Shown in pieces: positions 43,803-46,092 of a DNA stretch of 64,000 nucleotides. The position numbers and the translations under genes were made by a program. Source of the DNA: Eledone cirrhosa (taxonomy: Eukaryota); NCBI GenBank assembly GCA_964016885.1, contig OZ024742.1:197408001-197472000 (forward strand). Direction: 5' to 3'. Position 1 is the stretch's first letter. Each line of letters begins with the position of its first letter. The notes beneath the pieces are model-generated. The model saw nothing but the letters and a program-made list of their open reading frames with translations, did no database searches and was not told the origin of the DNA.

Positions 43803-44725
43803 ATTTATTATTGAATGAACACTTATATGACCTCCTTTTCAACCCAAGAGACATACAGATACATATGCAAATATTGTGGGTCAACATCCATTACAGCATT
43901 TAGTGTGGCAGTACACATTTAGAGATTACATTCATATTAAAAGATAAAATCAAAAATACAGGTTAAAATACAACATGAAATTAATGTGATACGATAGTCA
44001 TAAGCGGTTATTGAGTGCAATAGTTATACGTGTGGCAAGCACGTGCGTCTTATTTATATAGTGTGGCAGAGAGTTGCGTGTAATAGAAGCACTTAAACAG
44101 GTGATCAAGGGTGTTAAGGGGGTTGATCTGGTAATGAATTCTTTATATGATTGTTATAGCCTGTGCGTGGAGAAATAATATAAGCATTAAAAATAATATA
44201 AGCATTAGAAATATTGGAAATGCGTAGCGAAGCGATGATATGGATTCCATGCACTGCGACATTTTCATAGTCCGGGGAGCGTATTTTTCAGATTATATGC
44301 CCCTCACATAATCCACGACGATTCGATATTGGGCGTTTGACAATCCTGTTAAAGAATCGTAGTCTGGTGGTCTTTAAAGAAAAATGGAGTATATATTTTG
44401 TTTATCTAATAATTCTGTAGACAGGATTTATGATAATATATTGCTCTGAGTATTTAATTTATTAATTCTTCATAGAGCTAAAAAGTGACCGGTTGTAACA
44501 TATATAAATTTATGTATATGTAAACCTTTATATTTAATAATCTCCCGTAAGGTTGAGATTAAATTTGGCGATATTTGGCTGCGCTTTCGAGCGACAGGCC
44601 TACACGCCGTCAACAGCCAATCACATTCTTTCCAACTTGACCACGGCCATAGTGTGATTCTTAGCCATTTTTGAATCCAATTTTGGCGCGATCGGCTTGG
44701 AATACTAAGTGTCTATTTTTGAGTT

Positions 44726-44805
44726 TATCTCCTGATGATTCCGAACTCAATGAATTTCCTATGAATAGGATATCTAAAAATACGGATGAAACCATGGTAG
44801 GGATA
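44726..44805 (+). ncRNA. Type-I hammerhead ribozyme, copy 1
   Basis: tatctc-CTGATGA-t-tccg...cgga-t-GAAA-C-CATG-GTA^-gggata. Confidence 0.75.
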
Positions 44806-45386
44806 TAGTTACGGTATGTACACAGTTCTTCTATGTTTGATTTTACACCGAATTACATATGGTTAATTATGTACTTGGTCGATTTATGCATGCTGTCGAA
44901 ATGTTGGATAAATAACCTGCTGTGGATACCGCGAAGAAGCCACTCTCGTTTATTTGTCGGAGATTTCTTCATAGGAGCTTTTATCCTTATGGCTTAGTAT
45001 AATTGATTTTTTTATATGGTTGATTGTGCTGTTTGGCAGAGGAAATGGAGTATATATTTTGTTTATCTAATCATTCTGTAGACAGGATTTATAATAATAT
45101 ATTGCTCTGAGTATTTAATTTATTAATTCTTCATAGAGCTAAAAAGTGACCGGTTGTAACATATATAAATTTATGTATATGTAAACCTTTATATTTAATA
45201 ATCTCCCGTAAGGTTGAGATTAAATTTGGCGATATTTGGCTGCGCTTTCGAGCGACAGGCCTACACGCCGTCAACAGCCAATCACATTCTTTCCAACTTT
45301 ACCACGGCCTTAGTGTGATTCTTAGCCATTTTTGAATCCAATTTTGGCGCGATCGGCTTGGAATACTAAGTGTCTATTTTTAAGTT

Positions 45387-45466
45387 TATCTCCTGATGAT
45401 TCCGAACTCAATGGATTTCCTATGAATAGGATATCTAAAAATACGGATGAAACCATGGTAGAGATA
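45387..45466 (+). ncRNA. Type-I hammerhead ribozyme, copy 2
   Basis: tatctc-CTGATGA-t-tccg...cgga-t-GAAA-C-CATG-GTA^-gagata; perfect stem I, palindromic ACCATGGT. Confidence 0.8.
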
Positions 45467-46092
45467 TAGTTACGGTATGTACACAGTTCTTCTGTTTGAT
45501 TTTACACCGAATTGCATATGGTTAATTATGTACTTGGTCGATTTATGCATGCTGTCGAAATGTTGGATAAATAACCTGCTGTGGATACCGCGAAGAAGCC
45601 ACTCTCGTTTATTTGTCGGAGATTTCTTCATAGGAGCTTTTATCCATATGGCTTAGTATAATTGATTTTTTATATGGTTGATTGTGCTGTTTGGCAGAGG
45701 AAATGGAGTATATATTTTGTTTATCTAATAATTCTGTAGACATGATTTATAATATTATATATATATATATATATATATATATATATATATATATATATAT
45801 ATATATATATATATATATATATATATATATATATATATATATATATATATATATATATATATATATATATATATATATATATATATATATATATATATAT
45901 ATATATATATATATATATATATATATATATATATATATATATATATATATATATATATATATATATATATATATATATATATATATATTATATATATATA
46001 TATATATATATATATATAATATATATATATATATATATATATATATATATATATATATATATATATATATATATATATATATATATATATAT

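Follow-up and report, generated by a model that had tools for sequence, protein, structure and literature searches.

The window, a 64,000-nucleotide stretch of the Eledone cirrhosa genome, holds a copy of a dispersed, non-coding family of tandem units that, by its sequence, is a member of the non-LTR retrozymes, with one hammerhead of predicted cleavage activity in each unit. The family is very probably non-autonomous and mobilised by PLEs. On balance we consider it probable that this TA-targeted family, with its predicted hammerhead per unit, is copied by a Neptune-like PLE reverse transcriptase, likely from circular RNA. The case bears on two questions, the identity of the retrotransposon that mobilises animal retrozymes and the use of the circle as template.

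The segments 44382-45096 and 45043-45760 form a direct repeat with 98.0% identity over 715 nt (Table 1). Tandem spacing is 661 and then 658, giving ~2.1 units, and the array runs into (TA)n at 45748-46092. The original prediction of about 2.1 near-identical direct copies ending in (TA)n, with predicted cuts (after 44799 and 45460) 661 nt apart, is borne out by the alignment and the coordinates. The arm is 5'-truncated, and its 3' end is the +303 site of the unit, smeared a few bases into the TA run. The unit was also expected to be ORF-less and without PLE protein homology; its longest ATG frames are of 59 aa or less, and tblastn of a PLE protein from the Eledone cirrhosa genome against it gave no match (best E 0.25). 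The circular fold of the 44800-45460 monomer has an energy of -156.7 kcal/mol (z = -2.2, 40 shuffles), and in five monomers 61-65% of the bases are paired (z from -1.1 to -3.5). The monomer had been thought unusually long. It does exceed the 170-400 nt given for retrozyme monomers in the accessible text of PMC7229834 (Cervera and de la Pena 2020), but its size is not exceptional because published retrozyme families range from 51 to 972 bp and average 650 in ray-finned fish (Li et al. 2026, bioRxiv 10.64898/2026.07.22.740005). Two further motifs recur in the unit. The first, AGCCAATCA at 44615-44623 and 45276-45284, ~110 nt upstream of the hammerhead, resembles a CCAAT box and is a possible internal promoter; most copies have the CCAAT form and some subfamilies CTAAT. 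The second is a splice-donor-like GTATGT at 44814-44819 and 45475-45480, 14 nt 3' of the cleavage site, which is present in 97 of 120 copies (the eight commonest classes); PLEs retain introns.

Table 1. Features of the retrozyme locus in window coordinates; unit positions are counted from the predicted cleavage site.
Feature	Position	Strand	Remarks
(TA)17 target array, left	43517..43551	.	
3' end with tail of a coding Neptune-like PLE, 5'-truncated	43553..44376	-	its 5' end faces that of the retrozyme arm across the filler
Filler at the head-to-head junction	44377..44381	.	5 nt, no TA run
Whole retrozyme arm	44382..45756	+	unit positions 244-661, 1-661, 1-~300
Type-I hammerhead 1	44726..44805	+	stem I 44726-31/44800-05, core 44732-38, stem II 44739-87, GAAA 44788-91; palindromic stem III; predicted cut after 44799 (GUA)
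Predicted monomer, cleavage-to-cleavage	44800..45460	+	661 nt, GC 34.8%
TGCTCTG..CATAGAGCTA hairpin	45103..45141 (also 44442-44480)	+	directly 3' of the +303 end
95-nt tail between +303 and +398	45103..45197	+	second copy 661 bases upstream
Type-I hammerhead 2	45387..45466	+	predicted cut after 45460
(TA)n target array, right	45748..46092	.	

Each unit has the elements CUGAUGA, stem II, GAAA-C-CAUG-GUA and a stem I of 6 bp; CTGATGA lies at 44732 and 45393, and GAAACCATGGTA ends at 44799 and 45460. The original prediction of well-paired type-I hammerheads stands for stem I, which pairs, and for the cores, which are in place, but the first pair of stem II is a U10.1-U11.1 mismatch, and the 49-nt insert within this stem contains an inner hairpin. 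The predicted stem I sequence (TATCTC/GAGATA) is that of copy 2, whereas copy 1 has TATCTC/GGGATA with one G-U pair. Rfam, searched at gathering score and also at E<=10, recovers no hammerhead, and the 49 nt inside stem II probably account for this. Across 103 different hammerhead strings (selected by core motif and related, hence non-independent), stem I is 88.7% and stem II 88.9% paired, compared with 28-66% when slid. Position 10.1-11.1 is U-U in 37 of these strings, A-U in 34 and G-C in 28, the third pair is C-G in 90 and U-A in 12, and the stems remain paired across subfamilies. U10.1-U11.1 is a natural variant known to be active, more so than other mismatches (PMC3088659, accessible part). 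Stem III as a hairpin has an energy of +1.9 kcal/mol vs -13.2 kcal/mol for the 8-bp duplex of two copies. These folding energies agree with the earlier suggestion, drawn from the palindromic stem III, of dimeric cleavage and match the dimer model described in the available portion of PMC4209133 (Cervera and de la Pena 2014); dimers are predicted to be needed for cleavage. Eight of nine Xenopus retrozyme dimers gave no cleavage in vitro. In old subfamilies (L049 ~2590-2650, minus strand; L022 ~2690-2730) stem III is longer (3 bp plus loop) and may permit cleavage as a monomer.

Genome-wide, the hammerhead pattern has 647 matches vs 0 for the reversed control, which rules out a duplication confined to a single locus. 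The G-C variant of the pattern has 278 matches (control 0) and a further pattern 128 (control 0), 28 of the 128 places being additional to the matches listed. Copies are 70-98% identical and subfamilies up to ~30% diverged. Colinearity with the whole unit extends over 40 loci of 9.9 kb, 25 further loci and 70 loci of the youngest subfamily, and no ORF lies inside the unit or continues from it in any of these three sets. Two hammerheads 2031 bp apart (L101/L102) were considered as a longer unit and are a local duplication. Our search found no earlier paper on this family or on two-start retrozyme footprints; subscription papers, Repbase and bioRxiv supplements may list them.

The 3' ends of the family join (TA)n at two fixed sites, +303 or +398, and the 5' ends are variable. 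The 147 distinct insertions comprise 64 divergent two-armed (head-to-head), 80 one-armed and 3 convergent cases. Among the two-armed insertions 47 combine a +303 with a +398 end, two ends of the same kind never occur together, and in 17 one end is broken; where both ends are intact, 47/47 use one end of each kind, and the tail is found on one end only of inverted insertions. One-armed insertions end at +303 (53), at +398 (14) or elsewhere (13), and 34 one-armed entries have non-TA 5' flanks. Most arms are shorter than 1.5 units and the longest has ~3. We infer that +303 and +398 are two start sites of reverse transcription. In the accessible text of PMC11167929 (Frangieh et al. 2024), a PLE reverse transcriptase extends both target strands in vitro and two internal RNA starts bound the tail; the part of Craig et al. 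2021 available to us describes PLE insertions with inverted 5'-truncated arms and a tail on one end only. The two-start ends are the tail signature of PLE reverse transcriptases and strongly indicate mobilisation by a PLE enzyme. The original prediction of a retrozyme copied by such an enzyme holds in so far as the locus belongs to a dispersed non-coding tandem hammerhead family with PLE-type insertion ends. The 5' ends also pile up at +244..+256 (17 of 103 arms), at TATATA microhomology, and this pile-up exceeds that at the cleavage site.

In the retrozyme (+303), Neptune-1 and Neptune-2 alike, the tailless end lies 2-3 nt ahead of a TGCTCT..GAGC hairpin. The motif occurs in 49 further contexts, a count inflated by loci of one family fetched on purpose, and in 39 of the 49 it lies within 130 nt upstream of a TA run vs a background of 18.7%; scrambled versions have 2-7 occurrences. 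When the tails of the retrozyme and of Neptune-1 are put through a plain local alignment, their score is reached by 102 of 1000 shuffles. Because this alignment is not significant, the link between retrozyme and Neptune rests on a short motif recognised post hoc; the searches found no alignable parent of the unit either, and the motif therefore indicates a clade and not a single family. We regard the Neptune clade as the likely partner. Neptune-1 is young and high-copy (L191-L200), with many stop-free 832-codon frames and an intact 819-aa ORF (P0001). Its 159-nt tail stands directly before the ORF, its 3' UTR is 1.7 kb long, and a CUGAnGA core is absent from its UTR. Immediately 5' of the Neptune-1 ATG there is a second GCTC..GAGC hairpin. 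P0001 has no match in Pfam or PDB, and its Atlas neighbours carry HTH_animal and GIY-YIG, with a few RVT_1, which supports the PLE type only. We tentatively take its family to be Neptune-like from its motifs, together with the description of PLEs in Craig et al. 2021. Since the end hairpin is common to the retrozyme and to intact Neptune-like elements, the retrozyme is likely a parasite of the PLE copying enzyme. In a second Neptune-like family (L234, L239-L257) the hairpin precedes both the tail and the ORF start, and a hammerhead-like stretch upstream has CAGAAGA in place of CUGAUGA.

Variant sharing is ~7 times more frequent between copies of one insertion than between copies at different loci. 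In the youngest subfamily there are 5.27 shared variants per kb in the same arm and 4.80 in opposite arms vs 0.70 between loci, and 23 of the 59 pairwise shared counts concern variants private to the locus. When seven rearranged or convergent loci, homopolymer columns and end columns are left out, sharing amounts to 31/5213 in the same pass vs 26/5571 in different passes (p = 0.43, low power), or to 28/4861 vs 29/5923 if one L006 pair is moved to the different-pass class. Sharing that is independent of pass is as expected if one monomer is read repeatedly. The pattern fits a circular template and falls short of proof; gene conversion between neighbouring copies could also be a source of shared variants. 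From these sequence comparisons we lean towards a circle as the main template. A G/T difference that seemed to separate internal from terminal copies systematically was dropped, being private to the 44382-45756 locus.

The template could instead be an uncleaved linear tandem RNA, or jumps between linear monomers, in a PLE-mobilised family with rare cuts and incidental circles, to which local duplication may add units. Of 53 encounters with the cleavage site, 48 (~90%) are read through by the arm and five are stops, as a linear template would predict. Arm ends at +1..+6 number 5 vs 0.8 expected, four of the five being on ATATAG microhomology, and an exact +1 start, which counts in favour of the main reading, is found only in L179 and in a short piece in L147 (P ~0.008). 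For PLEs, the accessible text of PMC11167929 gives uncleaved linear RNA as the dominant substrate and hammerhead mutants as without effect on anole PLE insertion in vitro. The U10.1-U11.1 mismatch of the youngest subfamily also favours a linear template, as does partial variant sharing at L001, L013 and L002. At sites covered at least three times, four variants are in all copies and two in only some; 286G is in 2/3 copies at the 44382-45756 locus, and 34G in L002 is a third such case. Partial sharing is a sign of duplication at a later time, of conversion or of a template that was not uniform. However, sharing across passes equals that within a pass, whereas an aged tandem source predicts unit-private variants, and few long sources are seen, given the shortness of the arms. 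The stems have moreover stayed paired, with G-C or A-U at 10.1-11.1 in many copies, and U-U itself is an active variant. We judge a linear template to be unlikely, and a circle the better reading.

Hammerhead followed by tail is also the layout of a PLE pseudo-LTR, and the units might be 5'-truncated pseudo-LTR remnants of an unseen coding PLE, their tandem an ordinary PLE partial tandem. Genome searches score best candidates only, which leaves room for such a parent, but 17 natural hammerhead-to-hammerhead monomers (626-661 nt) contain no ORF, and the tail of a coding PLE leads into the ORF, as in Neptune-1, whereas here it leads into TA or unit position 399 in all common contexts listed. Among the loci examined, no copy is the pseudo-LTR of a coding PLE and no unit flanks an ORF with reverse transcriptase and GIY-YIG domains. 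A short-stem hammerhead pattern has 9 matches, mostly deletion variants and one other family, with no ORF link, and hairpin-to-ORF patterns (spacings 64-156 nt) have 5, none alignable to the unit; the locus surveys and these parent searches found no coding element alignable to it. A pseudo-LTR origin is very unlikely. A satellite or local duplication spread at the DNA level with a dead hammerhead is scarcely credible, since dispersal and insertion footprint (3' ends at fixed sites, 5' truncation of varying extent, arms in inverted orientation and insertion into TA at >100 dispersed loci) contradict it at the family level, although the 2/3-copies pattern at 44382-45756 fits local duplication of one unit.

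Under PLE-mediated copying of a circle, a locus with two hammerheads would be transcribed, and its palindromic stems III would dimerise and excise a ~660-nt monomer. The monomer would be ligated into a circle, in which the lone hammerhead would stay largely uncut. A PLE protein would then bind the GCTCT..GAGC hairpin and the tail. Both (TA)n strands may prime reverse transcription, at +303 and +398, giving the one-armed or head-to-head insertions that are observed, and the arms that cross the cleavage junction, up to ~3 units long, would arise by going round the circle.

Like metazoan non-LTR retrozymes (PMC7229834, accessible part; Li, Clavereau and Pollet 2026), the family consists of tandem ORF-less units with one type-I hammerhead each, a GC content <45%, a weak palindromic stem III and a length within the published range; it is dispersed, and PLEs co-occur. 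In contrast to them, its arrays are short (~3 units at most) and its hammerhead has a 49-nt branched stem II missed by Rfam. Two fixed ends, inverted arms, TA targeting and a PLE-shared motif are absent from the published retrozyme descriptions compared, as far as their accessible text goes. Circles have been demonstrated for coral, mussel and axolotl retrozymes, whereas the Eledone cirrhosa unit is known from DNA. With PLEs (accessible parts of PMC11167929, Craig et al. 2021 and PMC4209133) it shares partial tandems, an inverted 5'-truncated arm, a tail on one end, two start sites 3' of the hammerhead and AT-rich or microsatellite targets. Unlike coding PLEs in these sources, it has no ORF, a tail of 95 nt (vs 30-40) and a full-sized rather than minimal hammerhead, and its start sites match the target over a short TATA-like stretch, in contrast to the anole PLE, whose starts are non-homologous in the available text of PMC11167929. 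Chlamys non-autonomous PLEs such as MRC1 (Craig et al. 2021, accessible part) are likewise non-coding, head-to-tail multi-copy elements with 3' resemblance to autonomous families. MRC1, however, belongs in that text with N-terminal-endonuclease PLEs without canonical hammerheads, whereas each unit here has one, and the resemblance to autonomous PLEs here is a short hairpin motif and not alignable sequence.

The element itself is an ordinary addition to a known class; its value is a testable partner enzyme. Retrozyme repeats have no conserved motif pointing to a partner, according to the accessible portion of PMC7761336, and Li et al. 2026 argued for a PLE partner from co-occurrence and from pseudo-LTR similarity in frogs. 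In the present family the footprint left by insertion is already that of a PLE enzyme, and the candidate recognition hairpin is common to coding families. With that hairpin and natural intact ORFs, the in vitro assay already published for PLEs allows a direct test of both partner and template.

At the locus in the window, the retrozyme arm is joined to an 824-base fragment (43553-44376) of the coding PLE Neptune-1, whose GIY-YIG domain is C-terminal. A TA run borders the pair on each side, and its ends are one tail-bearing and one tailless, like those of homologous two-armed insertions. Among 24 pieces from three sequencing runs of unknown kind (one sample, fragmented contigs), none spans the 44376/44382 junction, a result without evidential weight. 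Relatives of the Neptune arm are 98-99% identical, comparable to the retrozyme subfamily. This single case suggests that 43553-45756 is one chimeric insertion; sequential insertions that lost the intervening TA would give an identical picture. A fuller scenario is more doubtful: a circular-RNA parasite may have captured the start hairpin of Neptune-clade PLEs, one host family of which is hammerhead-less, and a dimeric enzyme may prime both strands and load two RNAs, with this locus a chimeric insertion. If so, the tail-bearing Neptune arm and tailless retrozyme arm would record a retrozyme riding in a Neptune particle. At L037 (~2340-2560) the 5' end of a Neptune arm is joined to a ~200-bp stretch of a different repeat that ends in TA, which makes it a candidate second heterologous head-to-head insertion. 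Fragments of another PLE, with reverse transcriptase motifs and with GIY-YIG plus 148-nt inverted ends, flank the TA runs at 43000-43516 (minus strand) and 46089-47390; the locus is a nest of TA-targeting PLEs.

A second hammerhead family is present in the window at ~6900-7100 (both strands) and ~57127 (minus strand), and elsewhere at L083 and L203-L232. Its stem III is mostly CCACUGG, its stem II is long and perfect, and it has a GCTCT..GAGC end hairpin as in the retrozyme. It was considered, through L083, as the coding parent and set aside, a continuous ORF link not being established in 10 long loci. With one 546-bp tandem (L226), it is probably another retrozyme family.
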